Source: an uncultured Planctomycetales bacterium
GTDB taxonomy: Bacteria; Planctomycetota; Phycisphaerae; UBA1845; Fen-1342
Direction: 5' to 3'
Length of the DNA: 64,000 nt
Assembly: GCA_964418235.1 (NCBI GenBank)
Contig: CAYQLG010000008.1
Span: 2,164-66,163, forward strand
Shown: positions 5,069 to 50,172 of the stretch, piece by piece
Numbering within the stretch: position 1 is the stretch's first letter
Layout: each line of letters begins with the position of its first letter
The notes under the pieces: model-generated
What the model saw: the letters and a program-made list of their open reading frames with translations, nothing else
Told to the model about the DNA's origin: nothing
Database searches by the model: none
Translations under genes and position numbers: made by a program

Positions 5069-5704
5069 TCACTTCTTCGGCGCTACGCCGACCAGCGCCG
5101 TGCGGATTTCGACCTTGTCCGCGACCAGGGCCGAGCCTTTGGCGCTGTCCACGCCGAAGTCCTTGCGCATCACGTCAAAATCGCTGCGCACGACGAATAG
5201 ATCGCCCTCGCGGCCGCCCATGCGCTCGCCGAGCTTTCCAGGCAGATATTCGATCCGCAGGCCGATCGTGATCGATTTGGTTTTGCCCTTCAGCGTGAAA
5301 TCACCGGTCGTCTCCAGCTCATATTTGTTCTCACCGCCGGCGCGCACGCTGTTGACGCCCGTGATTTTGAATTCGATCGTCTTGTGTTCCTCGACGTTGA
5401 ACCAGTCCTTGCCGTGCAAGACCTCGGTCATCTTCGCATTGGTGCACTTCACGCTGTCGGCGGCGACGATGATCGTGCCGGTGAGCTTGCGCGGATCGGC
5501 GGGATCGAACGAGAGCTTTCCGGTAACGCCGGAGGCGACGCCGAAGATCGGCTCCAGCGCCGAATCGGCGCTGAACGTCATCGCGTTGACGCCCTTGGGA
5601 TCCTTGAAATCGAACTCGATGGCATCAGCGGCCTGGAGACTCGCGGCCCCGAGCAGGGCCGTGGAAATCACGAGAAACAGTGTGCGATTCAGCTTCACGA
5701 GCAT
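5069..5704 (-). CDS. YceI-like periplasmic beta-barrel protein
   Basis: 211 aa with signal peptide LFLVISTALLGAASLQA. Segments FDFKDPKGVNAMTF and TGDFTLKGKTKSITI are typical of the YceI family. Confidence 0.8.
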   Translation of the reverse strand: MLVKLNRTLFLVISTALLGAASLQAADAIEFDFKDPKGVNAMTFSADSALEPIFGVASGVTGKLSFDPADPRKLTGTIIVAADSVKCTNAKMTEVLHGKDWFNVEEHKTIEFKITGVNSVRAGGENKYELETTGDFTLKGKTKSITIGLRIEYLPGKLGERMGGREGDLFVVRSDFDVMRKDFGVDSAKGSALVADKVEIRTALVGVAPKK

Positions 5705-14590: not shown

Positions 14591-16063
14591 TCAAACGCGT
14601 GTCTCGCGCCAGCGGCCATAGGCGAAGCGCAGGCTGGAGAGAATCGCGCGGACGATGTTGTCGGCCCACATGCCGCACCACGCGCCGATTAATCCGCCGC
14701 CCAGCGTGATCGCCCCGACATATGCCAACGGCACGCGCAGGCCGACGCCGCAGATCAGGCTGATGTACATCGGCCAGCGCGTATCGCCGGCGCCGCGGAG
14801 GGCGTTGAAGTAAACAATCGCCGCGCCGATGAAGGGCTGGGCGAAGGCGATCAGCCGAAACGCCGGCGCGCCGACCGCGCGCACCGCCGGGTCATGGGTC
14901 ATGAGCTGAAAGAGCACGTCGGCCAGAAAGAAAAACCCGATGCCGACGCTGCTGGTGATGAGCACGCTCTGTAGGGCCGCGCGCTGGCCGGCGTGATAGG
15001 CCGTCTGGGGTTGGCCGGCGCCGAGATACTGACCCACCAGGGTGGCGGCGGCCGTGCCCCATGCAAAAGCCGGCAGATAGCTGATCGCTTCGAGCCGCAT
15101 CGCGATCATGTGGGCGGCATAGTTGGCCGTGCCGGCGTCGGCGGCGCCGCTACGGCTGACGATCTGAATGAACGCGAACTGGGCGGCGCTCATCACGATT
15201 GCATCGAGCGCCGCCGGCCCGCCGATGCGCAGAATTCTCCCGATCATGACGGGGTCGGGGCGGAAATCGGCCCGGCGCAGATGCATCCCGCGCAATCCAC
15301 CCGCCAGCAGCACGAGCATGGCCAGCGCGCCGAGGCACCGCGCAGCCAGCGTCGCATAGGCGATACCCTGCACGCCCGTCGGCGGGCCAAACCAGCCATA
15401 TACGAGTCCGGCTGCCAGAAGCGAATTCACGATGTTGACGCCGAGCATGATGCGCATCGGCGTGAGCATGTCGCCTGACGCGCGCAGGACTGCGCCGCCC
15501 GCCGTCGTGATGCACAGGAAGAGATAGCCGCCGGCGTCGATCTGCAGAAACTGCTGGCATAGCTCGCGGGCTGTCGGGGTCTGCGTCAGCGCTCGCGCTA
15601 CCTGTCCCGAAGCCAGCCATGTGCCGATGCTGGCGACCAGCCCGGCGGCCAGCGCCAGCAGGATCGCCTGATTGAGTGCCCGCTGCGCGACGGCTAGATC
15701 GCGCCCGCCGAACGAGCGGGCCACGACCGCCGCGGCGCCCGTGCCGACGAGCGCAAAGATCATGCCGACCATCCAGCCCATGTAGGAAGCCGTGCCGACA
15801 GCGGCGGTGGCCTCTTTGCTGATCGTGCCGGCGAGGTAGGAATCGATCAGGCCGATGAGGAAGTAGAAAAACTGCTCCCCCAGCATCGGCAGGGCCAGCC
15901 GGAAAACCTGGGCCATCAACGTTCCGCCAGGCAGCGACGTTAGCTCTGGTGGCGCCGCGCCGATCGCGGCGGTGCGCGTGGCATCGTCCGTTATGGCGCT
16001 GGCGGGTGACTCCGATGGATCGACGACGCGAATGAGCAGGCTCCCGGCGCGGTGGCTGCGCAT
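14591..16063 (-). CDS. MATE-family efflux transporter
   Basis: Polytopic protein with a MATE-like start region FRLALPMLGEQFFYFLIGLIDSYLAG and 12-TM-like hydrophobic periodicity. Candidate starts are ATG 16063 or ATG 15916; the ORF is open to 16102. Confidence 0.8.
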   Translation of the reverse strand: MRSHRAGSLLIRVVDPSESPASAITDDATRTAAIGAAPPELTSLPGGTLMAQVFRLALPMLGEQFFYFLIGLIDSYLAGTISKEATAAVGTASYMGWMVGMIFALVGTGAAAVVARSFGGRDLAVAQRALNQAILLALAAGLVASIGTWLASGQVARALTQTPTARELCQQFLQIDAGGYLFLCITTAGGAVLRASGDMLTPMRIMLGVNIVNSLLAAGLVYGWFGPPTGVQGIAYATLAARCLGALAMLVLLAGGLRGMHLRRADFRPDPVMIGRILRIGGPAALDAIVMSAAQFAFIQIVSRSGAADAGTANYAAHMIAMRLEAISYLPAFAWGTAAATLVGQYLGAGQPQTAYHAGQRAALQSVLITSSVGIGFFFLADVLFQLMTHDPAVRAVGAPAFRLIAFAQPFIGAAIVYFNALRGAGDTRWPMYISLICGVGLRVPLAYVGAITLGGGLIGAWCGMWADNIVRAILSSLRFAYGRWRETRV

Positions 16064-16125
16064 ATGCAGCCAGCCTGACTCACTGTAGCACCGATTTCGC
16101 ACGGCGCGGCTGGGCAGGAGAGAAG

Positions 16126-16625
16126 ACGTGATAAGGTGATAAAGTGAGAAGGTGATAAGGGCCGCGGTTCTGAGATCGCGACGCCGGCGGGTTCAATTCG
16201 TTCTTCGCTACTTGCGCTTTGCACTTACAGATACGCCGTCGGCCACAGAGGGCCGACGCACAGTGGCGTGAGAATGTGGGAAGGTGGGAAGGTTAAGATG
16301 CGACGCGTCCGTGGCTCACGCCAGTGCTTCTGTTAATAGCGCGGTAGCGCGATGATCGCAGCGTGCGGCATCCTCAATTCGTTCTTCGCTACTCGCGCTT
16401 CGCACTTACAGATACGCCGTCGGCCACAGAGGGCCGACGCACAGTGGCGTGAGAATGTGGGAAGGTGGGAAGGTTAAGATGCGACGCGTCCGTGGCTCAC
16501 GCCAGTGCTTCTGTTAATAGCGCGGTAGCGCGATGATCGCAGCGTGCGGCATCCTCAATTCGTTCTTCGCTACTCGCGCTTCGCACTTACAGATACGCCG
16601 TCGGCCACAGAGGGCCGACGCTACA
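16126..16625 (+). repeat. Family A composite repeat, with its 3' part tandemly amplified (181-bp period, 2.4 copies)
   Basis: GTGATAAG-type 8-mers x4 (16128-16159), TTCAATTCGTTCTTCGC, hairpin CGCCGTCGGCCACAGAGGGCCGACGC, GTGGGAAG x2 (16276-16291). CAATTCG recurs at 16194, 16375 and 16556. Copies 1 and 2 differ at 2 positions. Partial copy 3 equals copy 2 up to 16622. Confidence 0.9.
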
Positions 16626-17031
16626 GCGCGGCGGTCGTGGGATACGGTGGGCCGACCCGACAGCTTCACATGTCGGCAGAAGTCAGTGGCGATCCACGCG
16701 ACGAAATGCCCTGTGTGATTCAATCGCGTCAATCACGATCTATTTTTCGTGCGCGGTTTAGTCATGTCTGAGGGCATTCACGGCCCACAAATGCGAGGCA
16801 GACACTTGGCATCCGCCGAGAATATGCGCGTGGTCGCCGATCGGCGGCCGGTCTGAGAGAGTGTTCGATCCAAAGCTAAGTCAACGCGGCTGGCAGAACG
16901 ATCGCCGCACGGCGCCGAGCCTCAAGGTGCGCCGGTAACGGTTCGTTTTTTTTGTCCTGGAATCACACTGTTGTGGACGCGCTGGTTATGTCGCCATGCG
17001 CCTGTCCACAAAGCTCTCATTGGAGTGTTTT

Positions 17032-19092
17032 ATGTTTCATTCTCATCACTCGAGAAGTTGGAGCGTCAATGGCTTGGCATTGGTCATGCTGCTTGCCGCC
17101 GGCGCGTCGGCGGCTCCGCCGCGCGTGTGGACCTGGGGGCCGCCGCTGGATGACGGCACGACAGATCCAAGTACGCTCTCTGCGTGCGCACCGCGGTTTA
17201 TCCAAACCGTGCGCGTCAAAGTGATCACCGGGCATCCTACGTTGCCGATTGAAATCGGCATGACCGGCACGCAAGCCGCGACGGCGGTGTGTGAGCTGAT
17301 TCAGGCGCGTGGTTTGCAAGCCGGCGAAGTGGCGATCATTCTGCAGGACTTCGCGAAAGGAGACGGCGCACCGGATAATCCATTCCGCTATTCCGTTTCA
17401 TTGACCACCAACCACGCGGACGGTCTTACGGCGTGTGGGCCTGAGTGCCTGGTCGCTGACTGGTGGATGACGCCGTGGATGTCGAACGGCATCGCGGAAA
17501 CCCGCGCCTGGATGGAGGAGTTCGTGGCGCGCTATCAGTTTCTACAAGCGGAGGCGGCTGGGGGCGGCGGGGGTGGTCTCGAGAAATTGCCAGTGCCGCC
17601 GATTCCGAATCCTTCCCGCTTCATCTTTGACAATGAATTCGAAGTGATTTCTGGCTCTAACATGGAGGAGGTCTTCAGGTTGATGCAGTTGGAGTCGCGC
17701 TGGTACACCGAACCCATTCCGGGCTGGTTTGCTCAGACCCCAACCGGCTTGACGCCGCTCACGATGGAGGAGATCTATGACCAGGCTGGCCGGCCCCCAT
17801 ACCCGTCGGGGGCTGGTCAGGACGATCCCCCATATCTGAACTGGTTGAACTGGTACACCGGCGTGACGTACCAAGCGATTGAGGGTGCGATGAATGCGGC
17901 CGCCTACAGCGTCATTCGGCAGGCCTGGCCTGAATGCATGAGCAGCGATTACCGCACGTCATGCCGGACGGACAATGTGACCGACGAAACGCTGCCGCCC
18001 TACATCGCACGGCGTTATTACTTCGAGACGAAGCCGGGCCACCACGCTTATTGGCAGGGCTATAGCGACATGCAATCGCCGATCACCCCGCTGGTCTGGA
18101 CGCGGCACCTTCGGCCGAATGAGAGTATTTATGACTCCACCTTGCGCATCCACCGCGCCACGTTTGATTCGCTGCTGCATTCCTTCGGCGGGCAAAATCC
18201 GCCGATCGTGCCGTGGTTCAATGTGACGGTATATCTGGACCAGCTTCTGACGACGGCGGATCGCCATCATCAGCGCGATCTGCTCGCGTTGATTCGCAGC
18301 AAGGGCGTCGAAGAGCTGATCGCGTGGAGTGACGGCAACATTTTCATGGATTCACGCTTCACCTGGAATAATCTGTCCAGCGTCATCGCGCAGGTGTGGC
18401 TGGCCGCGGTGACGGATGTCAGCGTAGCGCGCGGCGTTTCAGGCAGCACGAGCGGGCCGCCGCAGGATTTGCTGCGTCACGCCGATGCCGACCCGCTGAC
18501 CTTGCTCGGCGATGGCGGAGCGGGGCAGCAGCTCGAAGTGGTCGTGGGCTTCTCGAGTTGCCTCAACAACCCCGCACGGCTGCGCGTTTCGTTGGATTCG
18601 GTTGAACAGGTCATTGGCGTACCGGACCCGACCGGTATTCCTGCAGACGCCGTGACGACGCAGGTTTCGATTCGCGACTGGAGCGCGGGCGGAACGACGC
18701 CGACCTGGCATTCGATTGGGTTCACGCGCGCCGACGCTTGCGGCAAGATCGAGGCTTTCTACGTCGAAGACGCGACCAGCTACATACGTCCCACCGACGG
18801 GCGCATCGAGATGCGGGTTGCGTATTCGTCCAGCATCGGCGGCATAGTCTCGGTGAAGCTCGATCACATCGCGGCGATCGAACTCGATCCCAGCCCGCTT
18901 GTGCCGAAGTGCCGGTTGGCCGATATCAATCATGATGATCGCTTGAACATCAACGATATCGCCGCATTCACTCTCGCATACGATGCCCAATGCCTGAAGG
19001 CTGATGTCAATCATGATGGCGTGGTGGATGCTCAGGACACGGCAGACTTTTATGAAGCGCTCACTGCCGATCCGAGTTGCTGGTCGCAGTGA
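17032..19092 (+). CDS. Exported hypothetical protein with C-terminal dockerin-like double EF-hand module
   Basis: ATG 17032 gives MFHSHHSRSWSVNGLALVMLLAAGASAAPP (signal-like). No recognisable catalytic domain. C-terminus ADINHDDRLNINDIAAF...ADVNHDGVVDAQDTADFYEAL carries two DxNxDxxxxxxD loops. Confidence 0.6.
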   Translation: MFHSHHSRSWSVNGLALVMLLAAGASAAPPRVWTWGPPLDDGTTDPSTLSACAPRFIQTVRVKVITGHPTLPIEIGMTGTQAATAVCELIQARGLQAGEVAIILQDFAKGDGAPDNPFRYSVSLTTNHADGLTACGPECLVADWWMTPWMSNGIAETRAWMEEFVARYQFLQAEAAGGGGGGLEKLPVPPIPNPSRFIFDNEFEVISGSNMEEVFRLMQLESRWYTEPIPGWFAQTPTGLTPLTMEEIYDQAGRPPYPSGAGQDDPPYLNWLNWYTGVTYQAIEGAMNAAAYSVIRQAWPECMSSDYRTSCRTDNVTDETLPPYIARRYYFETKPGHHAYWQGYSDMQSPITPLVWTRHLRPNESIYDSTLRIHRATFDSLLHSFGGQNPPIVPWFNVTVYLDQLLTTADRHHQRDLLALIRSKGVEELIAWSDGNIFMDSRFTWNNLSSVIAQVWLAAVTDVSVARGVSGSTSGPPQDLLRHADADPLTLLGDGGAGQQLEVVVGFSSCLNNPARLRVSLDSVEQVIGVPDPTGIPADAVTTQVSIRDWSAGGTTPTWHSIGFTRADACGKIEAFYVEDATSYIRPTDGRIEMRVAYSSSIGGIVSVKLDHIAAIELDPSPLVPKCRLADINHDDRLNINDIAAFTLAYDAQCLKADVNHDGVVDAQDTADFYEALTADPSCWSQ

Positions 19093-19127
19093 CGTGTAAC
19101 CATCGACGCTTGAGTCTGTATGCAGAT

Positions 19128-19160
19128 GGGGCAGGCAATCGGCCTGCCCCGTCCGATTTT
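19128..19160 (+). terminator. Rho-independent terminator after 17032..19092
   Basis: Stem GGGGCAGGC (19128-19136) pairs with GCCTGCCCC (19142-19150), 5-nt loop, then GTCCGATTTT. Confidence 0.7.
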
Positions 19161-19252
19161 GACGAGTGCTTGGCGGCAGCATGCGCGGGCGCTGACGGCA
19201 TTCCGCGCGGGGTGCTGGCGGTGGTGCGCCGTCTACGGGAAGATTCCCGCCT

Positions 19253-20509
19253 ATGAATCAGCCGGCGTCTGCACGCAGCCCGATCGCGATTGTTCTCTTG
19301 ACCGTGCTGATCGATACGATCGGTCTGGGCATCATCATCCCGGTGATTCCGAAACTCGTGATGGAGCTGGCGCATGTGCCGACCGAGGGGGCATCACTCT
19401 ATGGCGGCTGGCTGGCGTTTTCGTACGCCGTCACCCAGTTTCTCTTCAGCCCGATCGTCGGCGGATTGAGCGACTGCTTCGGCCGGCGTCCGGTGCTTCT
19501 GTTTAGCCTGCTCGCTTTCGGCGTTGACTATCTCATCATGGGCTTCGCGCCGCACTGGTCCTGGCTGGTGGTGGGGCGCGTGATTGCGGGCATCACCGGC
19601 GCGTCGCACTCGACCGCGAATGCGTACCTGGCCGACATCACGCCGCCGGAGCAGCGTGCCCAGCGCTTTGGCCTGATCGGCGCGATGTTTGGGATCGGCT
19701 TTATCCTCGGGCCGGCTCTGGGCGGCTTGCTGGGGCAGGTGCATTCGCGCCTGCCGTTCTTTGCGGCGGGCGTGCTGGCGCTGCTCAATTGCCTATGGGC
19801 GTTTGCGGTGCTGCCCGAGTCGCTGCGGCCCGCGGAACGGCGGCCATTTACGCTGCGCCGCTCCAATGTGCTGGGAGCGCTGCTGCAGTTGGCGACATTT
19901 CCCGGCGTGCTGGGCATTCTCCTGGCGATTTTTCTGTGGCAGCTCGCCCATCAGTCGTTGCCAAGCACGTGGTCGTACTACACGATGTCGCGCTATCAGT
20001 GGAATGAGTTTCAGGTGGGGCTGTCGCTGGCGTTTGTGGGGGTGTGCATGGCGGTTGTGCAGGGCGGCTTGACGCGGAAGCTTATCCCGCTGCTCGGCGA
20101 ATATCGCGCCGCGATTGTGGGGTTTGCGTTTGGCGCGCTGGGCTATGCGGGCTATGCATTCGCGCCGTATGGCTGGGTGATCTACGCCGTCGTCGCCGGC
20201 TCGGCGATTGGCGGGATCGGCTATCCGGCGTGTAACGCGCTGCTTTCCAAATCTACGCCTTCAAACTCGCAAGGCGAGTTGCAGGGCATCCTGGTCAGCA
20301 GCTTTAGCCTGACGGCGATCGTCGGGCCGCTCCTGATGACGAATGTGTTCTACGCATTCTCACGCGCAGATGCGGTGCTGCGTTTTCCGGGAGCGGCGTT
20401 TCTGCTTTCAGCGATTTTGTCGTTGATCGGGGGCGCGGTGTTTCTATTCACGCAGCGCCGCCAACCGGCGATGGGGGATGCAGCAGTGCGAATTGCGAAT
20501 AGCGAATAG
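19253..20509 (+). CDS. MFS transporter (TetA/TCR-like DHA1 family)
   Basis: 418 aa. N-terminal IAIVLLTVLIDTIGLGIIIPVIP, motif-A-like GGLSDCFGRRPVLL, 12-TM-like profile. The last codons (RIANSE*) come from a family A repeat. Confidence 0.8.
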   Translation: MNQPASARSPIAIVLLTVLIDTIGLGIIIPVIPKLVMELAHVPTEGASLYGGWLAFSYAVTQFLFSPIVGGLSDCFGRRPVLLFSLLAFGVDYLIMGFAPHWSWLVVGRVIAGITGASHSTANAYLADITPPEQRAQRFGLIGAMFGIGFILGPALGGLLGQVHSRLPFFAAGVLALLNCLWAFAVLPESLRPAERRPFTLRRSNVLGALLQLATFPGVLGILLAIFLWQLAHQSLPSTWSYYTMSRYQWNEFQVGLSLAFVGVCMAVVQGGLTRKLIPLLGEYRAAIVGFAFGALGYAGYAFAPYGWVIYAVVAGSAIGGIGYPACNALLSKSTPSNSQGELQGILVSSFSLTAIVGPLLMTNVFYAFSRADAVLRFPGAAFLLSAILSLIGGAVFLFTQRRQPAMGDAAVRIANSE

Positions 20510-20587
20510 CGAAGAACGAATGAAGTCGCCGCCATCGTGAATTGAGCGCCGCGGCCCTTATCACCTTGTCACGTTATCACCTATCAC
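20487..20587 (-). repeat. Family A repeat, partial copy (no hairpin module)
   Basis: GCGAATTGCGAATAGCGAATAGCGAAGAACGAATGAAG followed by GCCGCGG and CTTATCAC-type 8-mers (20555-20587). Confidence 0.75.
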
Positions 20588-20677
20588 GTCTTCCCCCGCG
20601 GCGCGATGTGCAATGCGGCTGCCCTCATCGAGTGCCGTTGGTCACGCCGGCGCAAGCAGCGACTACAGTACCCCGGC

Positions 20678-21859
20678 ATGCGTGTCGCGATCTGCCAGGA
20701 AACCATCGACGTGCGCCGCGGCGGGGCCGAGACCTCGACGCTCGAAATGGCGCGCCATCTTCGCGCGCTCGGGGCGATCGTGACGCTCGTAGCATCCGCC
20801 GAGCCGGCCCAACTCGAGCGGGTTTGCACGGCCGAAGGCCTGGGGTGTGTCGCAATCTCGCCGGCCGGCGGCAAACGGACGCGCACACGCCGCTACGTTG
20901 AGCAGCAGGCCCGCGTCTGCCGCGCCGGCGCGTTCGACATCGTGCACGCTGTCACGCCGTGCCGTGTCGCGGATGTCTATCAGCCGCGCGGCGGCACCTA
21001 TCCCGAGACAATCCGGCGGAGCGTCGCGCTGGGCGGCGCTCGACTGACGCGGCTGATTCGCGCCATCACGCGGCGGTTTAACTTCCGGCAGCAATATCTG
21101 CGCGACATCGAGCGGCGGCTGCTTATCCAGCGACCGGGGCCGTGCGTGGCGGCGCTTTCGCGCTACGTCGGTTATCAGATTCGCCGCGATTTTCCGGATT
21201 TGCCCGAGCCGCAGTTGTTCGACGTTTTCAACGGCGTGGATTTTGAGCCACTACCGGCAGACATCGAGGCGCAGACGCGCGCCCGCCTGCGGCAGACGTG
21301 GGACGCGCAGCGCGGACGACCGGTGGCGCTCTTCGTCGCGCACAACTTCAAGCTCAAGGGGCTGGCCGAATTGATCCGCGCCAGCGCGACGGCGACCGGG
21401 CGTGCGGCGGATTGGCTCGTGGTCGTCGCCGGTCGCGACAATGCCCGGCCCTATCAGCGTTTGGCGGCGCGGCTGGCGATCGCGTCGCGCGTGAAGTTCA
21501 TCGGGGCCGAGACGCCGGTGGCGCAGCTCTATGCGGCGAGCGACGTGCTAACGCACCCAACGTGGTATGACCCGTGCAGCCGCGTCGTGCTAGAGGCGCT
21601 GTGTGCCGGCCTGCCGGTGGTGACGACACAATGGAACGGCGCGGCGGAGGCAATCGAGCGCGGGCGCACGGGTATTGTGATCTCCGATCCGGGTGACGCA
21701 GAGTCGCTCGCCGGGGGGATCGCGGGGGCGCTGGGGCCACGCCTGGCCGCGACCTGTCGGCAGGCCGCGGACGCGGCGCGGGAAAAACTCTCGATGGCAC
21801 GGCATGCACGGGAACTGCTTGCGCTCTACAAGCTCATCCTGGAGCGCCGCGCGCGGTAG
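20678..21859 (+). CDS. Glycosyltransferase family 4 (GT-B, RfaG-like)
   Basis: Internal ATG 20678 (MRVAICQETIDVRRGGAETS). C-terminal GT1/GT4 signature region THPTWYDPCSRVVLEALCAGLPVVTT. Confidence 0.75.
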   Translation: MRVAICQETIDVRRGGAETSTLEMARHLRALGAIVTLVASAEPAQLERVCTAEGLGCVAISPAGGKRTRTRRYVEQQARVCRAGAFDIVHAVTPCRVADVYQPRGGTYPETIRRSVALGGARLTRLIRAITRRFNFRQQYLRDIERRLLIQRPGPCVAALSRYVGYQIRRDFPDLPEPQLFDVFNGVDFEPLPADIEAQTRARLRQTWDAQRGRPVALFVAHNFKLKGLAELIRASATATGRAADWLVVVAGRDNARPYQRLAARLAIASRVKFIGAETPVAQLYAASDVLTHPTWYDPCSRVVLEALCAGLPVVTTQWNGAAEAIERGRTGIVISDPGDAESLAGGIAGALGPRLAATCRQAADAAREKLSMARHARELLALYKLILERRAR

Positions 21860-21884
21860 CGCGGCGATTGACAGCGAAGGGGAT

Positions 21885-22083
21885 GTGATCACGTGATAAT
21901 GCGAGAAAGTGATAAGGAGATGAATTCACGGGCGGATTCAGGATTTCTGTAGCGTCGGCCCTCCGTGGCCGACGGCGGATCTGTAAGTGCGAATGGCGAA
22001 TTGCGAAGAACGAATTGAACGCGCCGACCTCGTGAGCTCAAGGCCGCTGCCCGTATCACTTTATCACCTTATCACGTCATCAC
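21885..22083 (-). repeat. Family A composite repeat (inverted relative to the 23653-23853 copy)
   Basis: GTGATAA-type 8-mers (21885-21915), hairpin CTGTAGCGTCGGCCCTCCGTGGCCGACGGCG (21947-21976), GCGAAGAACGAATTGAAC (22001-22018), CTTATCAC-type 8-mers (22049-22083). The reverse complement aligns by eye over ~140 nt with 23653-23790. Confidence 0.9.
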
Positions 22084-23483
22084 TTTTTCAAATGTTCCGT
22101 CGCGGCTTCGCCGGTGATGAGGCGGGCGGAGCGATTTCTCGTCCAGTAGTTCCAGGCCCACTGCACAAGAATCAACACGCGATTCTCAAACTCCACGATG
22201 AAGAGGATGTGAATGAAGAGCCACAACAGCCACGCCGGATAGCCCCAGAAGCGCACCCACCCAAAATCGGCGACCGCCGCCGCGCGGCCGATAGTCGCCA
22301 GGTCGCCTTTGTGCTGATAGACGAAAGGCGGATCAGCGGCGGTGCTCGGCGGCGTGGCGGGCGTGCTCGCAGCGTTGGAATTGGCCAGCCGCCGCGTGAT
22401 TTGCCGCGCGACATAGCGGCCCTGTTGCATGGCGACCGGGGCGGTGCCGGGCAGCGGCTTGCGATCGGGCCGCTGAACGCACGCAAGATCTCCGATGACG
22501 AAAATCTCCGGGTGGGCGGTGATGGTCAGGTTCGGCTCGACGCTGACGCGCCCGGCGCGATCGAGCGTGACGCCGGCCGCTTCGTGCAGGATGCGCCCCC
22601 ACGGGGAGGCCTGCACGCCGGCAGCCCAAAGTACGGTGTGGGCGCCGATGCGCTCGTTTTGCAGACCGGTTTGAATCAGCACGCAATCGGGCTGCACGTC
22701 GGTGACGCGCACGCTGGTCCAGACGGTGACGCCGAGATGCTCGAGTGAGCGCTTGGCGCGCCAGGACAACTCCGGCGGGTAGGGGGGCAGGACACGCTCG
22801 GCCGCGTCGAGCAGGATGATGCGCGCATCGCGGGGGTTGATGTGGCGGAAGTCGTGCTTAAGCGTGTCGCGCGCGATCTCGGCGATGGCGCCGGCCAGCT
22901 CGACGCCGGTCGGCCCGGCGCCGATGATCACGAACGTCAGCCACGAATCGTCGCGCTGGCCGCGGGCGCAGCGGCGCTCGGCCTCTTCGAATGCGTGCAG
23001 GATGCGGGCGCGGATTTCGGTCGCGTCTTCGATCGTCTTGAGACCCGGCGCATGTCGAGCCCAGTGGTCATGGCCGAAATAGTTGTGACTGGCGCCGGTG
23101 GCGACGATCAGCGTGTCGTATTCGACGAAGTCGTCGCGACTCGGCGCTGTGCTGGTGGTGGCGGGGGCGGGCGGCTGATCAACCGGCGTCTGCGGGGCAG
23201 GGATGGGCTTGAGGAAAATGCGCCGCGCGGCTGGGTCGAGGCCGCTGGCCTCCGCGAGCAAAACGCGCGCATTTCTCTGGCGCTTCAGGATGCCGCGGAG
23301 CGGGACCGCGATATCCGCCGGCGATAGTCCGCCCGTCGCGACCTGATAGAGCAACGGCTGAAACAGGTGGAAGTTGCGGCGATCGATCAATGTGATGTCC
23401 ACCTCTTGTCGCTTCAGCGATTGAGCCGCGAGCAGACCGCCAAACCCCCCACCCAGAATGACCACGCGATGACGCTTGTTCAT
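22080..23483 (-). CDS. ndh: Type II NADH dehydrogenase (NDH-2), FAD-dependent
   Basis: 467 aa. VVILGGGFGGL and a second dinucleotide fold FVIIGAGPTGVELAG. FVIGDLA motif and a C-terminal membrane-associating tail. Confidence 0.85.
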   Translation of the reverse strand: MNKRHRVVILGGGFGGLLAAQSLKRQEVDITLIDRRNFHLFQPLLYQVATGGLSPADIAVPLRGILKRQRNARVLLAEASGLDPAARRIFLKPIPAPQTPVDQPPAPATTSTAPSRDDFVEYDTLIVATGASHNYFGHDHWARHAPGLKTIEDATEIRARILHAFEEAERRCARGQRDDSWLTFVIIGAGPTGVELAGAIAEIARDTLKHDFRHINPRDARIILLDAAERVLPPYPPELSWRAKRSLEHLGVTVWTSVRVTDVQPDCVLIQTGLQNERIGAHTVLWAAGVQASPWGRILHEAAGVTLDRAGRVSVEPNLTITAHPEIFVIGDLACVQRPDRKPLPGTAPVAMQQGRYVARQITRRLANSNAASTPATPPSTAADPPFVYQHKGDLATIGRAAAVADFGWVRFWGYPAWLLWLFIHILFIVEFENRVLILVQWAWNYWTRNRSARLITGEAATEHLKK

Positions 23484-23603
23484 CCGGCGAATGGTACGGT
23501 CGTGGGAGGAAATGAACAGGCTGGCGGCATGAGCTGGTGAAAGCGTGTGTTGCGCTACTGGCGAAATAACTTCGCGAAGCGGCGCACCGTAGGAGTGATG
23601 CCG

Positions 23604-23853
23604 TGCTGTAGCGTTGGGACTCCGTGCCCAACGCCGGGTCGATACGCAAGAAGTGATAAGGTGATCAGGTGAAAAAGTGATAAGGGCCGCGGCTTTGAGC
23701 TGACGAGGTCGGCGCGTTCAATTCGTTCTTCGCCATTCGCCATTCGCACTTTCCAGTACGCCATCGGCCACGGAGGGCCGACGCTACAGCGCACTTACGG
23801 TCAGCCGCGGAAGACCGACACAAGGGGGCGTGGGAAGGTGGGAACGTGGGAAG
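23604..23853 (+). repeat. Family A composite repeat preceded by an extra hairpin module
   Basis: Hairpin GCTGTAGCGTTGGGACTCCGTGCCCAACGCCGGGTCG (23604-23640), GTGATAAG-type x4 (23653-23685), TTCAATTCGTTCTTCGC (23717-23733), hairpin CCATCGGCCACGGAGGGCCGACGCTACAG, GTGGGAAG-type x3 (23830-23853). Confidence 0.9.
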
Positions 23854-23867
23854 ATGATCAGGCTGGT

Positions 23868-24947
23868 TCAGCGCGGGCCGAGATCGGCGCCGGTCACGAT
23901 CTTGACCCGGCCGCCGTTTTGTTCGGCGATGCGGCGAAGCGTGCGCACGCCGTCGGTCTCGCGCGGCAACTGGCTCGTGTCGCCCAGGAGCAGTTCGTCG
24001 AAGACGAGCGTGTAGAGCTTGGTGTTGGTCTTGTTCAGCGAGCGGATTTCGCGCTCGGCGGCGGCAGCATCTTCGAACAGGCCATCGGAGAAGATGAACA
24101 TGACTTCGGGCTTGAGGCTCAGCCCGCGGCGGATCGCCGGCAATGGATCGCTGCCGCCCTCCGGGGCTTTTGAATTGAGCCAGTCGAAGAAGCGCTTTTT
24201 CGTCGGTTCGGTCGCGGCGACGAGGCTGCCGCTGAACGCATCGGCGACAATGCGATCCTGTTGCACTTTGCTGTAGAAGAGAATCACTTCAAAGGATTGC
24301 TCGGGCTTGAGGCTGCCGATGGAACGACGCAGCTCGCGCTTCAGGTCATCGACCGCCACCACGATTGAGCCTGAGAAATCGACCACGTAGACGATCTTCG
24401 ACGCGGCGACGGATAGATCCCATACGCCCGCGCGCAGCAGCCGCGAACTGCCGCCGCCGAGGCCGCTCCCAAAGCCGCCGGCGCCGGCCGCGCCCGCGCC
24501 GGTGCCCGTGCCGAGCAGACTCAGCCGGCCCTCGCCGAGGCCAAAGCCGTCATCGCTGCCGCCGGATTTGCCGATGTCGGTCGGCGTGATGGCGGCGGTG
24601 TCGAGTTGGCGGAGATCGCTGAGGTCCATCAGGTCTTCGAGCGGGGTGGTTGGGCGCTGTTCGAGCGCCTGGAGCAACTCTTGATTACCCCACTGAAACG
24701 CGGCGCTCATCTGATCGGCGAGGCTTTGCGTCAGGCCGGCGCGATAGTCGCCGACATCAAGCGTCTCGCGCTGAAAAATCGAGAAGGTCTTGAGCGCGAG
24801 GAAGATCAATAGCGCCACGTGCAGCAACAGGCTGATCGTCATCGGCACCCCCAAATGCATCAGCCAGCGCAGGGCCGGGTTGTGCTGCTCGCGATCGGGC
24901 AGCGGCTCGGAGGCGGCGGCGGGGGTGGAGTGGGGTGCGTCCGTCAT
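23868..24947 (-). CDS. Membrane-anchored von Willebrand factor A (vWA) domain protein
   Basis: 359 aa. N-terminal TM MTISLLLHVALLIFLAL. MIDAS-like IVYVVDFSGSI. C-terminal vWA fold (VMFIFSDG). Confidence 0.7.
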   Translation of the reverse strand: MTDAPHSTPAAASEPLPDREQHNPALRWLMHLGVPMTISLLLHVALLIFLALKTFSIFQRETLDVGDYRAGLTQSLADQMSAAFQWGNQELLQALEQRPTTPLEDLMDLSDLRQLDTAAITPTDIGKSGGSDDGFGLGEGRLSLLGTGTGAGAAGAGGFGSGLGGGSSRLLRAGVWDLSVAASKIVYVVDFSGSIVVAVDDLKRELRRSIGSLKPEQSFEVILFYSKVQQDRIVADAFSGSLVAATEPTKKRFFDWLNSKAPEGGSDPLPAIRRGLSLKPEVMFIFSDGLFEDAAAAEREIRSLNKTNTKLYTLVFDELLLGDTSQLPRETDGVRTLRRIAEQNGGRVKIVTGADLGPR

Positions 24948-25000
24948 GGCGGATCAGGAGGCAGAGGTTGGGTGTTTTTGGGGCAGAAGACACCGGAATG

Positions 25001-25150
25001 CGGGTCGGAGACCCGCGAAAACAATCACCGGTCGGAGACCGGTGCCACACGCACAATCACCGGTCGGAGACCGGTGCCACAAGCACAATCACCGGTCGGA
25101 GACCGGTGCCACACGCACAATCACCGGCCAGAGAACCGGTGCCACACACA
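25001..25150. repeat. Tandem array of five phased hairpins: one related upstream hairpin plus a 32-bp repeat in 3 perfect-stem copies and 1 degenerate copy
   Basis: Units start at 25021, 25053, 25085 and 25117. Each contains CACCGGTC-GGA-GACCGGTG (8-bp stem). The upstream GCGGGTC-GGA-GACCCGC hairpin (~25000-25016) has the same loop. There are no unique spacers between units. Confidence 0.9.
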
Positions 25151-25186
25151 GCTCAGGACTGCGCTCCGTCGCGTAGAGCATTTTCA

Positions 25187-25651
25187 CTACATGACCAATC
25201 CGCCGCGCGGTTTTCCGCCGGGGTCTTTGCCTGGAAGCGCGCCGGAAGGACCAGGGCCGGCGGCCGCACCGGGCGCAACGCCGCTCATCGCGGTTGTGAT
25301 CTGCACATACGCCATGCGCAGGTCGTAGAGCGTTTGATCGAGGAAGTGCTTTTCCTCCGGCGTCAGGTTGCCCTTGGTCTTTTGATCGAGAACGTCGAGC
25401 GTGTCGATCAGGAATTTGGCCGACTCGAGATTGGGCGGGATACGCTCGCCATTGGGCATGGTCATCAGCCCGAGCGACATCACGACCTGCAGCGCGAGCG
25501 AGTTAATCAACTCTGAGAAGCTGGCGGGCGGGGCTTGCTCCTGCGGGTGCGACTCAGTCGCTTCGGTCAGTTGTTCCTTTTCCTTACGCGCCTGGGCCTT
25601 CCAATCGTCGTCGACAATGATCTTCGGCGTTTCGTCCGCCATCGGGCACAC
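25187..25651 (-). CDS. DUF1844-like small acidic protein
   Basis: 154 aa. SFSELINSLALQVVMSLGLM...LESAKFLIDTLDVLDQKTKGNLTPEEKHFLDQTLYDLRMAY matches the DUF1844 pattern from memory. Confidence 0.6.
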   Translation of the reverse strand: MCPMADETPKIIVDDDWKAQARKEKEQLTEATESHPQEQAPPASFSELINSLALQVVMSLGLMTMPNGERIPPNLESAKFLIDTLDVLDQKTKGNLTPEEKHFLDQTLYDLRMAYVQITTAMSGVAPGAAAGPGPSGALPGKDPGGKPRGGLVM

Positions 25652-25828
25652 TCCTTCGTTGAGATTGTAACGGCAGACCGGATGTTACGTCCGCGTACAC
25701 CGAGCCGCGCCCGTGAGCGGCGCCGAGCACCCAAGCGGAGCCGCGACCGTAAGGAAGCGATTCGAATCGATCAACGCCTGATCCGCGCGTCGCGCTGCGC
25801 ATCAGAAACAGACCAGATCGCCTGCATT

Positions 25829-25897
25829 CGCCGACAGCGCCAACATCCGCCGAGAGCGCCCGCACTCGCCGACAGCGCCGCAATCGCCGATAGCGCG
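25829..25897. repeat. Four direct copies of CGCCGA(C/G/T)AGCGC(C/G) at 18-19-bp spacing
   Basis: Copies at 25829, 25848, 25867 and 25885, between the gcvP stop (25994) and the DUF1844 gene start (25651). Confidence 0.7.
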
Positions 25898-25993
25898 CGC
25901 CCTGACGGGCATTCAGCGGCCGAGCTGAAACACGACGACCGGCTCGACCCCAATCGCTTCCTTACGGGCGCGGCTCCGCTCATGCGGTTCGGC

Positions 25994-28900
25994 TCAGACG
26001 GAGAGAGTCGCCGCGGCTTCGACCGGCACGCAGGAGCAGAACAGGTTGCGATCGCCCCAGACGTTATCGACGCGCGCGACCGGCGGCCAGTACTTGTGCG
26101 CCCGCACCCACGCCGCCGGAAACGCCGCGGTCTCGCGCGAGTAGGGATGCGCCCAGGAGTTTGCACAGACCTCCTGCGCCGTGTGCGGGGCGTTCTTGAG
26201 CGGATTGTCGGCGCGATCGCCGCGTCCGGTCTCGATTGCGCGAATTTCGGCGCGGATCGCGATGAGCGCGTCGCAGAGCCGATCCAGCTCCGCGCGTGCT
26301 TCGCTTTCGGTCGGCTCGATCATGAGCGTGCCGGCGACGGGCCAGCTCATGGTCGGCGCGTGGAAGCCATAGTCCATCAGCCGCTTGGCGATGTCTTCGA
26401 CCTTAATGCCGGCCGATTCTTCGAAGGCGCGGCAATCGACGATGAACTCATGCGCGACGCGGCCGTTCTTGCCGCGATAGAGAATCGGGTAGTGCTCCTC
26501 AAGCCGGCGGGCCATGTAGTTCGCATTCAAGATCGCGGCTTGCGTCGCCTTGGTCAGGCCCGACGAACCCATCATGGCGATGTACATCCATGAAATGGTC
26601 AGGATGCTCGCGCTGCCGAACGGGGCCGCCGAGACCGGACCGACGCGGGAGGAGGAGGGTGATAAGGTGATAAGGTGATACGGTGATAAGGCAGCGGCAT
26701 CGTCCGCGTCAGCGATTCCCGATATCGCTGCGGCGACAGTTGTGTCTCTGCCCTTTCCACCTTCCCACGTTCCCACCTTCCCACTGGCATCCGCCGTACG
26801 CACGCCCGGATCGACGACCGGATGCCCCGACAAGTACGGCGCAAGATGAGCGGCGACGCCGATCGGGCCCATGCCGGGGCCGCCGCCGCCATGCGGGATG
26901 CAGAAGGTTTTGTGCAGATTGAGGTGGCAGACATCCGCGCCGATGTCGGCGGGGCGCGTCAGGCCGACCTGCGCATTCATATTCGCGCCGTCCATATAGA
27001 CCTGCCCGCCATAGCGATGCACGACCTCGCAAATTTCGCGGATGCCCTCTTCGAAGACGCCGTGTGTCGAGGGGTAGGTCACCATCAGGGCGGCGAGACC
27101 GGCGCGGTGCTGCTCCGCTTTGACCGAGAGGTCTTCGACGTTGATATTGCCCAGATCGTCACACGCAACGGGCACGACTCTGAAGCCCGCCATGACGGCG
27201 CTGGCCGGGTTGGTCCCGTGCGCCGAGACGGGAATCAGGCAGATGTTTCGCCGGCTGTCGCCGCGGCTTTCGTGATACGCGCGGATCGTCAGCAGGCCGG
27301 CGTATTCGCCCTGCGCCCCGCTGTTGGGTTGCAGGGAAACCGCGGCAAACCCGGTGATTTCGGCCAGCCAGCTTTCGAGCGAGTAGCACAGCTCCTGATA
27401 GCCGCGCGTCTGATCGGCGGGGGCGAAGGGGTGCATGCGGCCGAACTCGGGCCAGGTAACCGGGATCATCTCGCTCGTGCCGTTGAGTTTCATCGTGCAC
27501 GAGCCGAGCGGGATCATGCTGGTCGTCAGTGAGAGATCCTTTGCTTGCAGCCGGTTGAGATAGCGGAGCATTTCGTGCTCGCTGTGATACTGATTGAAGA
27601 CCGGGTGCGTGAGATAAGCCGTCTCGCGCCGCAGCGCCGCCGGTATGACGTCCGGGTCCGATGGGATCGGCGCCTTCGGGTCGAGCTCGAAGCCGCGCCC
27701 GCAGCCGAACGACCCGAGCACCTGTTTCACGTCTTCGAGGGTCGTGGTTTCATCGAGCGAGACGCCGAGCGTTCCGTCGCCGTAGTCGCGCAGGTTCAGT
27801 CCGTGTTCGACGCCGGCCTTGAGCACGCCGACGGCGTCGTTTTTGCAGTGCTCGCCGATGACCGGGCGCACACGGATCGTGTCGAAGTACGTCGGCGTGA
27901 GCACCTCATGGCCGAGCCAGCGCATGCCGTTGGCGAGGATGCGGGTGAAGCCGTGCACGCGCTCCGCGATGCGGCGGAGGCCCTTCGGGCCGTGATAGAC
28001 CGCGTACATGCTCGCCATGACCGCGAGCAGCACCTGCGCGGTGCAGATGTTGCTGGTAGCCTTCTCGCGGCGGATGTGCTGCTCGCGCGTCGCCAGCGAC
28101 AGGCGATACGCCGTCTGGCCGCGCGCGTCCTTCGAAACGCCGATGAGCCGGCCCGGAATCTGCCGCTTGAATTCATCGCGGCAGGCGAGAAACGCGGCGT
28201 GCGGCCCGCCAAAGCCCAGCGGTACGCCGAAGCGCTGCGCGCTGCCGATGACGATGTCGGCGCCCCACTCGCCCGGCGGTTTGAGCAGCGTGAGGGCTAA
28301 CAGATCGGTGGCCACAATCACCCGCGCGCCGCCGGCGTGCATGCGCGCGACCGCCTCGGAGTAATCGTTCACATTGCCGAAGGTGTTGGGATATTGCAGC
28401 AGCACGCCGAAGAAGTCGTTCTTCGAATAATCGGTCTCGCGCGGGCAGTCGATGACGACCTCGATGCCGAGCGGCCGCGCGCGGGTTTGTACGACCGCAA
28501 TCGTCTGCGGGTGGCAACGCTTGGCGACGAGAAACTTGTTGCGGCCGCCGTCGCTGAGCGCGTGGGCCATGTGCATCGCCTCGGCGGCCGCGGTGGCCTC
28601 GTCGAGGAGCGATGCGTTGGCGATCGGCAGACTGGTCAGGTCGGCCACCATCGTCTGGAAGTTGATCAGGGCCTCGAGCCGGCCCTGTGAGATCTCCGCC
28701 TGATAGGGCGTGTATTGCGTGTACCAGCCGGGATTCTCAAGCACGTTGCGCAGAATGACCGGCGGCGTGATCGTGTCGTAATAGCCCATGCCGATGTAAC
28801 TGCGCAAGACGCGGTTTTTCAGGGCGATGGCGCGCAAGCGCGCGAGCGTCTCGTTTTCGCCGCGCGGCGGGTCGAGACGGAGCGGGGCTTTCATGCGAAT

Positions 28901-29056
28901 CGCCGCGGGCACGGTCTGATCGATCAATTGCTCAAGTGAGCTGCAAGAGAGCGTGGAGAGCATGCCGCGAATATCGGCGTCGGATGGGCCGATGTGGCGG
29001 TGCACAAAAGTATCGGAAGGCGAAAGCGGCTCGAAATCCTGAAACGACGCGGCCAT
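25994..29056 (-). CDS. gcvP: Glycine dehydrogenase (decarboxylating), glycine cleavage system P protein
   Basis: ORF open to 29290. The conserved N-terminus begins at ATG 29056 ([25 protein letters not shown]), with GGGAGA 9 nt upstream. Motifs [34 protein letters not shown] and [23 protein letters not shown]. Carries a ~48-aa extra loop encoded by a repeat element. Confidence 0.95.
26658..26783. repeat. Short family A-type element (8-mer arrays flanking a hairpin core) embedded in frame in gcvP
   Basis: GGTGATAA x4 (26658-26691). 59-nt core with CAGCGAT-N7-ATCGCTG. CTTTCCAC/CTTCCCAC-type 8-mers (26751-26783). 126 nt = 42 codons with no stop in the gcvP frame. Confidence 0.85.
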
Positions 29057-29539
29057 TAGGCGGAGTCTCCCTTGGGGGACCAAACAACCGGCCCGGCGAC
29101 AGTTCACCCGGCTATCTGCTGCTATTGTAGCGATGCCGCGCGGCTTGGGGTTGTGCGGCGGCAGCACGCCCGGCGCCATCCGGAATGGTTGGACCTGGCC
29201 ACAACAAACCATGCGGGTGGCGGCAGTTCTGATGGCTTTTTTTGAAATGATCAGCAACGACCGGCCGTGAGTCTGGATTGAGCCATCCATTTCGGATCAT
29301 GGCGACTGAGCCGGAGTTGTCCGGAGTTGTGCCGGCGCGGGTTTCTGAGACACGGGATTCTGCGGGGCAAGATGTTGACAGATGTGACGCGGTGGTAACG
29401 TATCCGGATGATGCCGTACACATTTAATACGAAAACTTGAAGGGTTGATGAAGAAAGGGCGATTTGTCAGCCGACCGATCTCCTCGCGATTATCGGGCTA
29501 TTCCGATTGCACAACCTCGCACATGTTTTGCGGGGTAAG

Positions 29540-50059: not shown

Positions 50060-50172
50060 TCGCCAATCATTCTTCGATCTTCGCGATTCGCCATTTCTCA
50101 TCCGCCGTCGGCCGCGGCTGGTGATGCGAGTGGCGTGAGAAGGTGCGAAGGTGATAACGTCATAAGGTGAAG
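50060..50172 (+). repeat. Degenerate family A copy
   Basis: CGCCAATCATTCTTCGATCTTCGCGATTCGCCATTTC, then CCGCCGTCGGCCGCGGC, then 8-mer-like GTGATGCGAGTGGCGTGAGAAGGTGCGAAGGTGATAACGTCATAAGGTGAAGG. Confidence 0.5.

Follow-up and report, generated by a model that had tools for sequence, protein, structure and literature searches.

The locus described here raises the question of how a hairpin of short tandem repeats, built from the same octamer arrays as the intergenic repeats around it, came to lie without a stop codon inside the reading frame of gcvP, the gene for the aminomethyl-transferring glycine dehydrogenase, in an uncultured Planctomycetales bacterium (assembly GCA_964418235.1, contig CAYQLG010000008.1, positions 2,164 to 66,163). 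This stretch of 64 kb is referred to below as the window, and its coordinates are given in plus-strand numbering. We propose that the repeat block is probably a copy of a selfish or neutral short-tandem-repeat hairpin element that was kept in a permissive connector loop of GcvP. If so, it illustrates a way in which repeat DNA, selfish or neutral, can extend a highly conserved enzyme at a surface loop, and how the stop-codon content of a repeat decides which orientation and which arm variant survive within a gene.

The repeat block in gcvP and its intergenic relatives

The host reading frame is a bona fide gcvP. The coding sequence lies on the minus strand at 25994..29056 and encodes 1020 amino acids from a methionine that aligns with those of homologues. 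Its product is a full-length TIGR00461 equivalog (1493 bits vs a cut-off of 859) with the Pfam domains GDC-P and GcvP2_C, the latter at residues 837-958, and the TIGR00461 match is broken into two stretches, the first of which ends at residue 749. The closest homologues, GcvP proteins from metagenome-assembled genomes (MAGs) of Phycisphaerales, Phycisphaerae and Planctomycetota, share 66-73% identity with it, and the gene is otherwise intact, with every invariant residue present, including the NLHK716TF motif of the lysine that binds pyridoxal phosphate (PLP). The open reading frame (ORF) that holds gcvP spans 25994..29290 on the minus strand, as it stays open for 78 codons further upstream (29057-29290) to an ATG at 29290; homology to GcvP begins at the methionine of 29056, no counterpart of the extension was found among relatives, and the extension is probably not translated. 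A preliminary description of this DNA had called the gene essential, for which the analysis offers no support, and to our knowledge essentiality is not general for bacterial gcvP.

In octamer register, the block occupies 26659..26784 on the minus strand (the gcvP sense) and consists of 32 + 62 + 32 = 126 nt, that is 42 codons without an in-frame stop, as both the sequence and the translation confirm. Arm 1 (26659..26690, plus strand) is (GTGATAAG)x4 with one variant unit, and arm 2 (26753..26784, minus strand) is made of four GTGGGAAG-type units, which read on the plus strand as CTTTCCAC CTTCCCAC GTTCCCAC CTTCCCAC, an array of the (CTTCCCAC)x4 type. In the mRNA, arm 2 becomes the 5' arm, GUGGGAAG, and arm 1 the 3' arm, (CUUAUCAC)x4. 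Tandem Repeats Finder assigned period 8 to both arrays, with 4.2 copies and 92% matches at 26658-26691 and 4.1 copies and 88% matches at 26752-26784, which bears out the two 8-mer arrays first placed at 26658-26691 and 26751-26783. The 62-nt spacer between them (26691..26752, assigned to no strand) opens with the junction GCAGCGGC, common to the intergenic copy at 22043-22051, and contains the hairpin CAGCGAT-N7-ATCGCTG that had been noticed earlier (26705-26735; its extended 12-nt arms are 83% complementary). The two arrays themselves form a 24-nt inverted repeat of 75% complementarity, and the block folds to -54.7 kcal/mol as the mRNA strand (z = -2.2) and to -58.3 kcal/mol as the plus strand (z = -3.3).

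The octamers connect this block with repeats dispersed in the window. With up to 3 mismatches allowed, a GTGATAAG x2 probe gave 20 matches vs 0.06 expected and a GTGGGAAG x2 probe gave 13 vs 0.20 expected, and the octamer arrays fall at six intergenic sites and a single genic one, gcvP. The arrays outside gcvP (16128-16160, 16268-16293, 16449-16474, 20556-20587, 21885-21924, 22052-22091, 23653-23685, 23830-23853 and 50135-50170) all lie between Pfam-confirmed genes, namely MatE, MFS, GT4, NDH-2 and DUF1844. The preliminary description had proposed a BLASTN search for similarity between the block and intergenic copies; run on the window, it returned significant matches (E 3e-7 to 7e-4) at 16128-16160, 22043-22083, 23653-23685, 23830-23856, 20556-20582, 50135-50167, 16268-16293 and 16449-16474, with the similarity confined to block positions 1-41 and 93-127, i.e. 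to the arms and the junction. The longest match, block 2-41 against 22083-22043, takes in the post-array junction GGCAGCGG, so that GG(G)CAGCGGC after the array is common to the block and the intergenic copy. Thus the claim that block and dispersed intergenic repeats are composed of the same octamer arrays stands, as arrays and junction are both shared.

The block is nevertheless not a copy of the intergenic repeats called family A, to which it had been likened. The gcvP block lacks the core of family A, which comprises TCAATTCGTTCTTCGC, heptamers and a hairpin (GTCGGCC..GGCCGAC), and the arrangement of the arms is unlike that in two of the three copies cited for the likeness. In these two, at 16128..16293 and 23653..23853 on the plus strand, a GTGATAAG array (16128-16160 and 23653-23685, respectively) is followed by the core and by a GTGGGAAG array (16268-16293 and 23830-23853) that is direct, not inverted, to the first. 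The third, at 21885..22091 (assigned to no strand) between the convergent GT4 and NDH-2 genes, has forward and inverted GTGATAAG-type arrays at its two ends, with the family A core inside and without a GTGGGAAG array; it is the sole intergenic element of the window with inverted arrays as in gcvP. The earlier statement that the same two arrays terminate all three elements thus needs correction.

Reading-frame content accounts for the form in which the block is found. Each of the three frames of a GTGATAAG array meets TGA or TAA, whereas (CTTATCAC)n can be read in any frame and yields the cyclic peptide LITLSPYH each time, and (GTGGGAAG)n is stop-free both ways. Of the six frames of the 126-nt block, the three on the plus strand are closed and only two, both on the minus strand, are open, one of which is used by gcvP. 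Its orientation was thus forced, since only the CTTATCAC sense is open, and the other arm is the stop-free GTGGGAAG variant because GTGATAAG arrays bear stops in every frame; for the same reason, no gene could retain a hairpin whose two arms are both GTGATAAG-type arrays, while one made of GTGGGAAG and CTTATCAC in the present orientation can be kept. The GTGATAAG arrays found in real genes elsewhere are all in the LITLSPYH sense, in a radical SAM/SPASM protein (L042), a TPR protein (L052) and a prepilin peptidase (L113). The same stop-free-orientation argument has been made by MacGregor for TAACTGA and its peptide LSVISYQ (PMC4679880). A frame shared with P0025 (LSPCDLVTLSP) was considered as a sign of common ancestry or targeting and was rejected, because an 8-mer array yields the same cyclic peptide in every frame.

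Octamer arrays in other genomes and at the GcvP connector loop

An exact scan for GTGATAAG x2.75 (a 22-mer) in one genome per GTDB species, 596 Gb in all, found 113 stretches vs about 0.07 by chance on our estimate, in hosts that include Phycisphaerae and other Planctomycetota, Bacteroidota, Elusimicrobiota, Chloroflexota, Balneolales and others. Several MAGs are multi-copy, such as Phycisphaerales CSMAG_1569 and Planctomycetota CTOTU19882. A recurrent layout was seen in these loci, (GTGATAAR)3-5, a spacer of 6-107 nt (mostly 17-59) and (YTTATCAC)3-6, and the forward-then-inverted order occurred 21 times, some of the loci being redundant, vs 1 for the reverse order. At loci with G+C above 0.58, an inverted partner accompanies 14 of 30 forward arrays, and a variant unit in one arm has its mirror image in the other, as L014 and L021 show. 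In CSMAG_1569, GTGGGAAC and GTGATAAG arrays lie side by side, and the spacers of three copies (L004, L005 and L090) are all 54 nt, the L090 spacer looking by eye like the reverse complement of the L004 spacer. The gcvP block, with 4 units, 62 nt and 4 units in forward/inverted order, fits the standard layout of the Phycisphaerae/Planctomycetota element, its second arm being the GTGGGAAG variant. No GTGATAAG x2.75 stretch was found in the viral contigs scanned, and thus there is no sign of a phage vehicle. A literature search on the octamer strings and on the peptides HLITLSP and TEARRHG found no relevant paper, and a GTGATAAG octamer hairpin element with apparently fixed polarity in several phyla was not met in the literature searched.

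Across these loci (L001-L113), GTGATAAG x2.75 occurs in distant phyla at G+C from 0.34 to 0.68, often in several copies per genome, and the arrays are usually joined to other 7/8-mer arrays, including CTAGAAA, GTAGGAA, CGTATCAT and CTGACTG. In a Magasanikbacteria MAG (L027, ~5477-5530) and a low-G+C genome (L111, ~860-900), GTGATAAG arrays stop 8-17 nt before start codons of genes that look ribosomal by eye (MSRSLKKGPY..., S19-like, and MESRLQKYYKEQV..., L5-like). A Shine-Dalgarno (SD) role, suggested by the likeness of TAAGGTGAT to TAAGGAGGTGATC, was rejected as general, the co-occurring CTAGAAA, GCGAATG and GCAGAAT arrays not being SD-like and the window arrays that precede the start codons of MatE and GT4 lying in an anti-SD-like sense. 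Likeness to a DnaA box, an integration host factor (IHF) site or a Fur box was dropped on account of poor matches by eye.

The site in GcvP at which the block lies is variable in length. The GHPVV and GPVSAAP motifs are separated by 57 residues here, by 9 in E. coli (9uz6, Q742..Q750), as in the preliminary description, by ~10 in human and by ~13 in Synechocystis (4lgl), the base loop of homologues having ~9-12 residues. The loop sequence was expected to be lineage-specific, and the insert is indeed absent from all 120 best homologues and from all 80 further metagenome gcvP loci; relatives carrying the same loop sequence, which would have spoken for another origin, were not met. Of 121 homologues, 20 or more have inserts of at least 8 residues at this loop and inserts are rare at other internal positions, the loop, ~30 residues downstream of the PLP lysine, being the main internal hot spot of GcvP length variation. 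An AlphaFold2 model built on 80 sequences (mean predicted local distance difference test score, pLDDT, 82; predicted template-modelling score 0.87) superposes on the P-proteins of Synechocystis, human and E. coli (4lhc, 6i33 and 9uz6) with TM scores of 0.95-0.96 (0.94-0.96 when normalised to the target). Over residues 749-801 the pLDDT stays below 50, the means of successive 10-residue blocks being 31-37, and these residues are predicted to be mostly coil with one short helix at 775-779, the insert being placed between a short helix (736-741) and a long helix (816-852) that leads into the C-terminal domain. The model therefore agrees with the earlier view of the insert as a loop, in the form of a length-variable, low-confidence segment that separates the PLP domain from the C-terminal domain.

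Seen in the DNA, 7/8-mer arrays lie at the same loop in seven related gcvP genes, mostly as inverted pairs: (GNAACAAG)4 - 27 nt - (CTTGTNAC)4 in L114, (GTGGGGAA)3 in L115, (GCGAATN) and (ATTCGCN) in L116, (GAATGCN) in L117, (GAATGCA) and (TTCGGCA) in L118, (CGAAGGN) in L119, where a (GCCTTCA)-like stretch downstream is read as a degenerate inverted arm, and (CTCAAAT) and (CCCCAAG) in L120. When the units of these seven inserts were sought in their own 10-kb flanks, they were absent save for a weak (CCCAAGC)-like match in L120; the same flanks do hold other 7/8-mer arrays. Among the unselected gcvP loci, 16 of 80 contain arrays, at a density of 0.91 per 10 kb vs 1.21 per 10 kb in the flanks. 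In 87 gcvP loci, 32 arrays were counted, almost all at residues ~454-486, just before YLTHPVF, and at ~746-803, and since some of these loci are mutually related the independent events are fewer than the array counts. Two GcvP connector loops are thus repeatedly occupied by unrelated 7/8-mer arrays across phyla, which was not met in the literature searched. The second hot spot (~454-486) was seen in L121, L139, L146, L155, L159, L160, L176, L186, L190, L193 and L195, an example being (CAATCGG)n, which is translated as NRQSAIGNRQS in four loci that are related. Besides its (GCGAATN)/(ATTCGCN) pair in the post-PLP loop, the gcvP of P0030 has a further in-frame array, (TCCAGAA)x4.3, at about residue 620 (L116:2851-2880).

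Other conserved proteins of Chloroflexota, Elusimicrobiota, Planctomycetota and others in the fetched loci also carry in-frame 7/8-mer arrays. Two arrays each are found in GlyS (L075:3-1940) and in a FolC-like Mur ligase (L106:3334-4539), and arrays also lie in PriA (L120:14150-16792, minus strand), in the radical SAM/SPASM protein (L042:1103-2161) and in the prepilin peptidase (L113:2939-3811, minus strand); a LUD-domain protein (L043:2967-3869) has (GGAACGTG)x16.6, and a Roseiflexaceae membrane protein of 1108 residues without a Pfam match (L015:1615-4938, minus strand) has three array pairs. For annotation, this means that odd low-complexity segments in good genes, such as NRQSAIG, are translated repeats and neither errors nor domains.

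Possible origins of the block

The element that we propose as the source would be dispersed, non-coding and hairpin-forming, with some four octamers of GTGATAAG type on one side of a short spacer that varies and, on the other side, roughly four octamers in an inverted array. A copy may have reached the codons of the connector loop, which links the PLP-binding domain of GcvP to the C-terminal domain, by insertion or by ectopic copying, and it would have survived there by passing three filters, a length that is a multiple of three, the sole readable orientation with the GTGGGAAG variant as the other arm, and a structurally permissive loop. The block would then be transcribed and translated together with gcvP to give a disordered, low-complexity loop of 42 residues, most likely without effect on the enzyme and thus a tolerated passenger, and its mRNA could still form an imperfect 126-nt hairpin. 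For the intergenic elements, roles as a protein-binding array or as an RNA 3' hairpin are both possible.

Several observations weigh against this account. The mobility of the gcvP block is what we infer, no transposase or other mobilising gene being linked to it, although no search for transposases was made. Neither the window nor the fetched loci contain the 62-nt spacer a second time, so that multiple copies of this exact element are not demonstrated; when the 60-nt core was compared by BLASTN with the window and 200 fetched loci, nothing rose above chance, the best match being an exact 16-mer at 61730 (E = 0.02). The flanks ...GGAGGAGG / TGGCATCC... contain no direct repeat that would mark a target-site duplication, none was seen in 22 other listed elements either, and no defined termini of the block are visible. 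Transcription and translation of the block are deduced solely from the open frame, and low pLDDT is weak evidence of disorder, because it is expected for any insert that is absent from the alignment. The best relatives reach ~70% identity in the protein database by BLAST (73% in the alignment) and at most 65% in the metagenome scan; with no close relative found, an empty site, the age of the insert and variation in copy number are not visible.

The unique spacer and the missing target-site duplication would suit an origin in place, in which octamers expanded by polymerase slippage, with a fold-back template switch for the inverted arm, and the intergenic arrays had no part in forming the block. 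Slippage has been named as the source of simple repeats of heptamers and octamers (Mrazek 2007, in the passages of PMC4679880 and PMC4692102 that cite it), and a slippage-prone site could explain why the loop bears arrays of many units in other lineages. We nevertheless regard such an origin as unlikely, since the octamers, the GGCAGCGGC junction and the layout of 4 units, spacer and 4 units all match dispersed elements of the window and of related genomes, the 5' arm has four units that are without exception of the GTGGGAAG type, as in the intergenic arrays, with no patchwork of repaired units, and inverted arms are not made by slippage alone. The preliminary description had also allowed that the block is exapted, in which case the loop would serve the enzyme (in docking of the H-protein, regulation or localisation) or the DNA or RNA element would regulate gcvP, be it as an array that binds a protein, by making ribosomes pause, or by way of the processing or stability of the mRNA. 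The position of the connector close behind the PLP lysine and the long hairpin possible in the mRNA are in keeping with this idea, the strict polarity of the elements suggests that they are recognised by something, and tandem units of 7-8 bp are a known operator layout of ribbon-helix-helix proteins, as in the metboxes of MetJ. Omega heptads are likewise tandem operator units of such a protein (PMC9499535). However, the loop inserts of different lineages are unrelated in sequence and length and most GcvPs have none, so that conservation is lacking, and the composition of the insert is that of a forced translation of the repeat. A promoter and terminator scan of 26300-27200 placed no such site inside 26659-26784, and Rfam gave no match for the whole window at gathering thresholds nor for 16000-27000 at E up to 1. 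We found no evidence for exaptation and consider it quite improbable.

Repeat arrays are classic sites of assembly error and the block is known from a single assembly, thus a mis-assembly of repeat reads, or a dead gene, has to be weighed as well. Such an artefact is very hard to reconcile with a frame that is exactly kept over 126 stop-free nucleotides, with flanks that run seamlessly into conserved motifs, with the full-length equivalog score, and with the comparable arrays that are inserted in frame at this loop in 10 or more independent assemblies. Removal of the segment before the mature protein is formed, as an intron, an intein or a translational bypass, could draw on the strong local hairpin, and we give it hardly any credence: 42 residues are too short for an intein and their translation, on reading, shows no intein motifs or blocks, the Rfam search at E up to 1 matched no intron or other RNA family, and a segment destined for removal would need neither an open frame nor a length divisible by three. 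A tolerated copy of a dispersed hairpin element hence appears to us the probable explanation.

Known repeat systems and other repeats of the window

In-frame arrays of 7/8-mers have been documented before (PMC4679880, PMC4692102, PMC2700814), and the gcvP block is a clear example of a known phenomenon. What is new is an octamer-array hairpin in a planctomycete, which is best filed with a known kind of repeat and not as a new kind of element. Long simple sequence repeats with units of 5-11 nt occur in prokaryotes (Mrazek 2007, in the part cited by PMC4679880). TAACTGA repeats are found in Beggiatoaceae, Cyanobacteria and Bacteroidetes, with the reverse reading LSVISYQ and 10 sets in ORFs (PMC4679880); GGGAATC in Xanthomonas and GGGGAYT in Nostoc are 7-32% intragenic and include some inverted pairs (PMC4692102); and the short tandemly repeated repetitive sequences (STRR) of cyanobacteria can form hairpins, for example between hupS and hupL (PMC2670836). 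The arrays described here resemble STRR and long simple sequence repeats in their head-to-tail units of 7-8 nt in ~3-6 copies, dispersed and mostly intergenic, in their frequent inverted pairs able to form hairpins (PMC2670836, PMC4692102), and in the minority that lies in ORFs, only in the stop-free orientation and encoding a cyclic peptide (PMC4679880). The TAACTGA unit occurs in distant phyla without a known vehicle (PMC4679880), and GTGATAAG does likewise. They differ in that the units are the octamers GTGATAAG and GTGGGAAG instead of the cyanobacterial heptamer consensus, that the host is a Phycisphaerae-like planctomycete, and that the arrays serve as paired arms of a discrete element whose forward/inverted polarity is strict; nor has repeated occupation of one loop of one conserved enzyme been reported in the published STRR-type cases. 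An STRR inside the rnpB gene has reportedly been described by Vioque in 1997, to judge from the title of that work.

A comparable published layout is that of Geobacter metallireducens, in which 'class 1 global regulator sites' are paired on opposite strands, with four tandem octamers each and variable spacing, and elements of four tandem heptamers lie within genes as well as between them (Aklujkar 2009, PMC2700814). The gcvP block (4 units, 62 nt, 4 units) and 21 further elements with spacers of 6-107 nt share this design, whereas the Geobacter consensus sequences GTTGCTYN and GGACCGG differ from the units found here and Geobacter belongs to the Deltaproteobacteria; the Geobacter sites were proposed to be IHF/HU or regulator sites, with insertion sequence (IS) elements at a fixed distance (PMC2700814). 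Rickettsia palindromic elements (RPEs), palindromic repeats of ~100-150 bp, are found in frame in unrelated housekeeping genes, where they are translated and compatible with the fold (Ogata 2000, in the part cited by PMC10969869). The likeness to RPEs lies in behaviour only, as an in-frame palindrome in a housekeeping gene; RPEs form conserved full-length families with a conserved peptide and are CGTC-tagged (PMC3733652), whereas the gcvP block shares just its tandem-octamer arms with other copies, has no sequence relation to RPEs and comes from a different phylum.

Repetitive extragenic palindromic (REP) sequences and bacterial interspersed mosaic elements, tagged by GTAG/CGTC, are dispersed palindromes that lie mostly downstream of genes and form mosaic clusters (Di Nocera 2013, PMC3733652); some REPs are wholly inside ORFs of known proteins, and REPs have been reported in Planctomycetes (PMC3733652). 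The gcvP block has neither a GTAG/CGTC tag nor a stem-loop of 20-40 bp, its arms being tandem arrays; the intergenic family A core does have a GTAG-tagged hairpin, a core that is missing from gcvP. [quoted passage not shown] The octamer-built 24-nt arms, 75% complementary, are comparable to the terminal inverted repeats of MITEs, from which the block differs in inverted repeats that are arrays of variable copy number and in that no target-site duplication, conserved full-length consensus or parent IS was identified, no transposase search having been made.

To specialists in bacterial repeats the single gcvP case will be an ordinary one, but systematic study is merited by the repeated occupation of two loops of GcvP and by the GTGATAAG element with fixed polarity that is found across phyla. 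The multi-copy presence of GTGATAAG in Planctomycetota, Bacteroidota, Elusimicrobiota and Chloroflexota and its strict polarity leave room for the doubtful proposal that octamer- and heptamer-array hairpins are an unrecognised cross-phylum class of actively spreading or maintained elements. Were this true, a conserved factor would recognise the elements, new loops would be written repeatedly at a few permissive sites, and the elements would be a general source of lineage-specific protein loops instead of occasional accidents.

Some further repeats of the window concern family A. Partial copies lie at 20488..20587 on the minus strand, with a GTGATAAG array (20556-20587) and a half of the core that has (GCGAATA)x4.9, and at 50070..50170 on the plus strand, with half of the core and a mixed GTGAGAAG/GTGCGAAG/GTGATAAC array. 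A unit of 181 nt, composed of the family A core, a GTGGGAAG array and ~90 nt more, is repeated 2.4 times in tandem at 16193-16626 with 98% identity, a second GTGGGAAG array thereby lying at 16449-16474. The stop codon and final codons of NDH-2 (22080-22091) are supplied by the inverted GTGATAAG array, and the last seven codons of the MFS transporter gene (20488-20509) fall in the (GCGAATA) heptamer array. The GTAG-tagged hairpin of the core (21940-21975, 16220-16262 and 23755-23790) is CTGTAGCGTCGGCCCTCCGTGGCCGACGG and, judged by its sequence, looks like a REP of the GTAG super-family (PMC3733652). In CSMAG_1569 (L005, L034 and L090), ATGTAGCGGCCGGGCTCCGTACCGGCC adjoins the octamer arrays, and compared with CTGTAGCGTCGGCCCTCCGTGGCCGACGG it has compensating changes in the stem, with the loop CTCCGT and the tag kept. 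Downstream of gcvP, a 19/38-nt tandem repeat (CATTCGCCGACAGCGCCAA-like, 3.8 copies) lies at 25815-25900, ~95 nt from the stop codon, and a 32-nt unit (ACAATCACCGGTCGGAGACCGGTGCCACACGC) is repeated 3.9 times in tandem at 25021-25147, ~850 nt from the gene; each unit of the latter contains the hairpin CACCGGTC-GGAG-GACCGGTG, and the repeat is flanked by an unknown gene and the DUF1844 gene.

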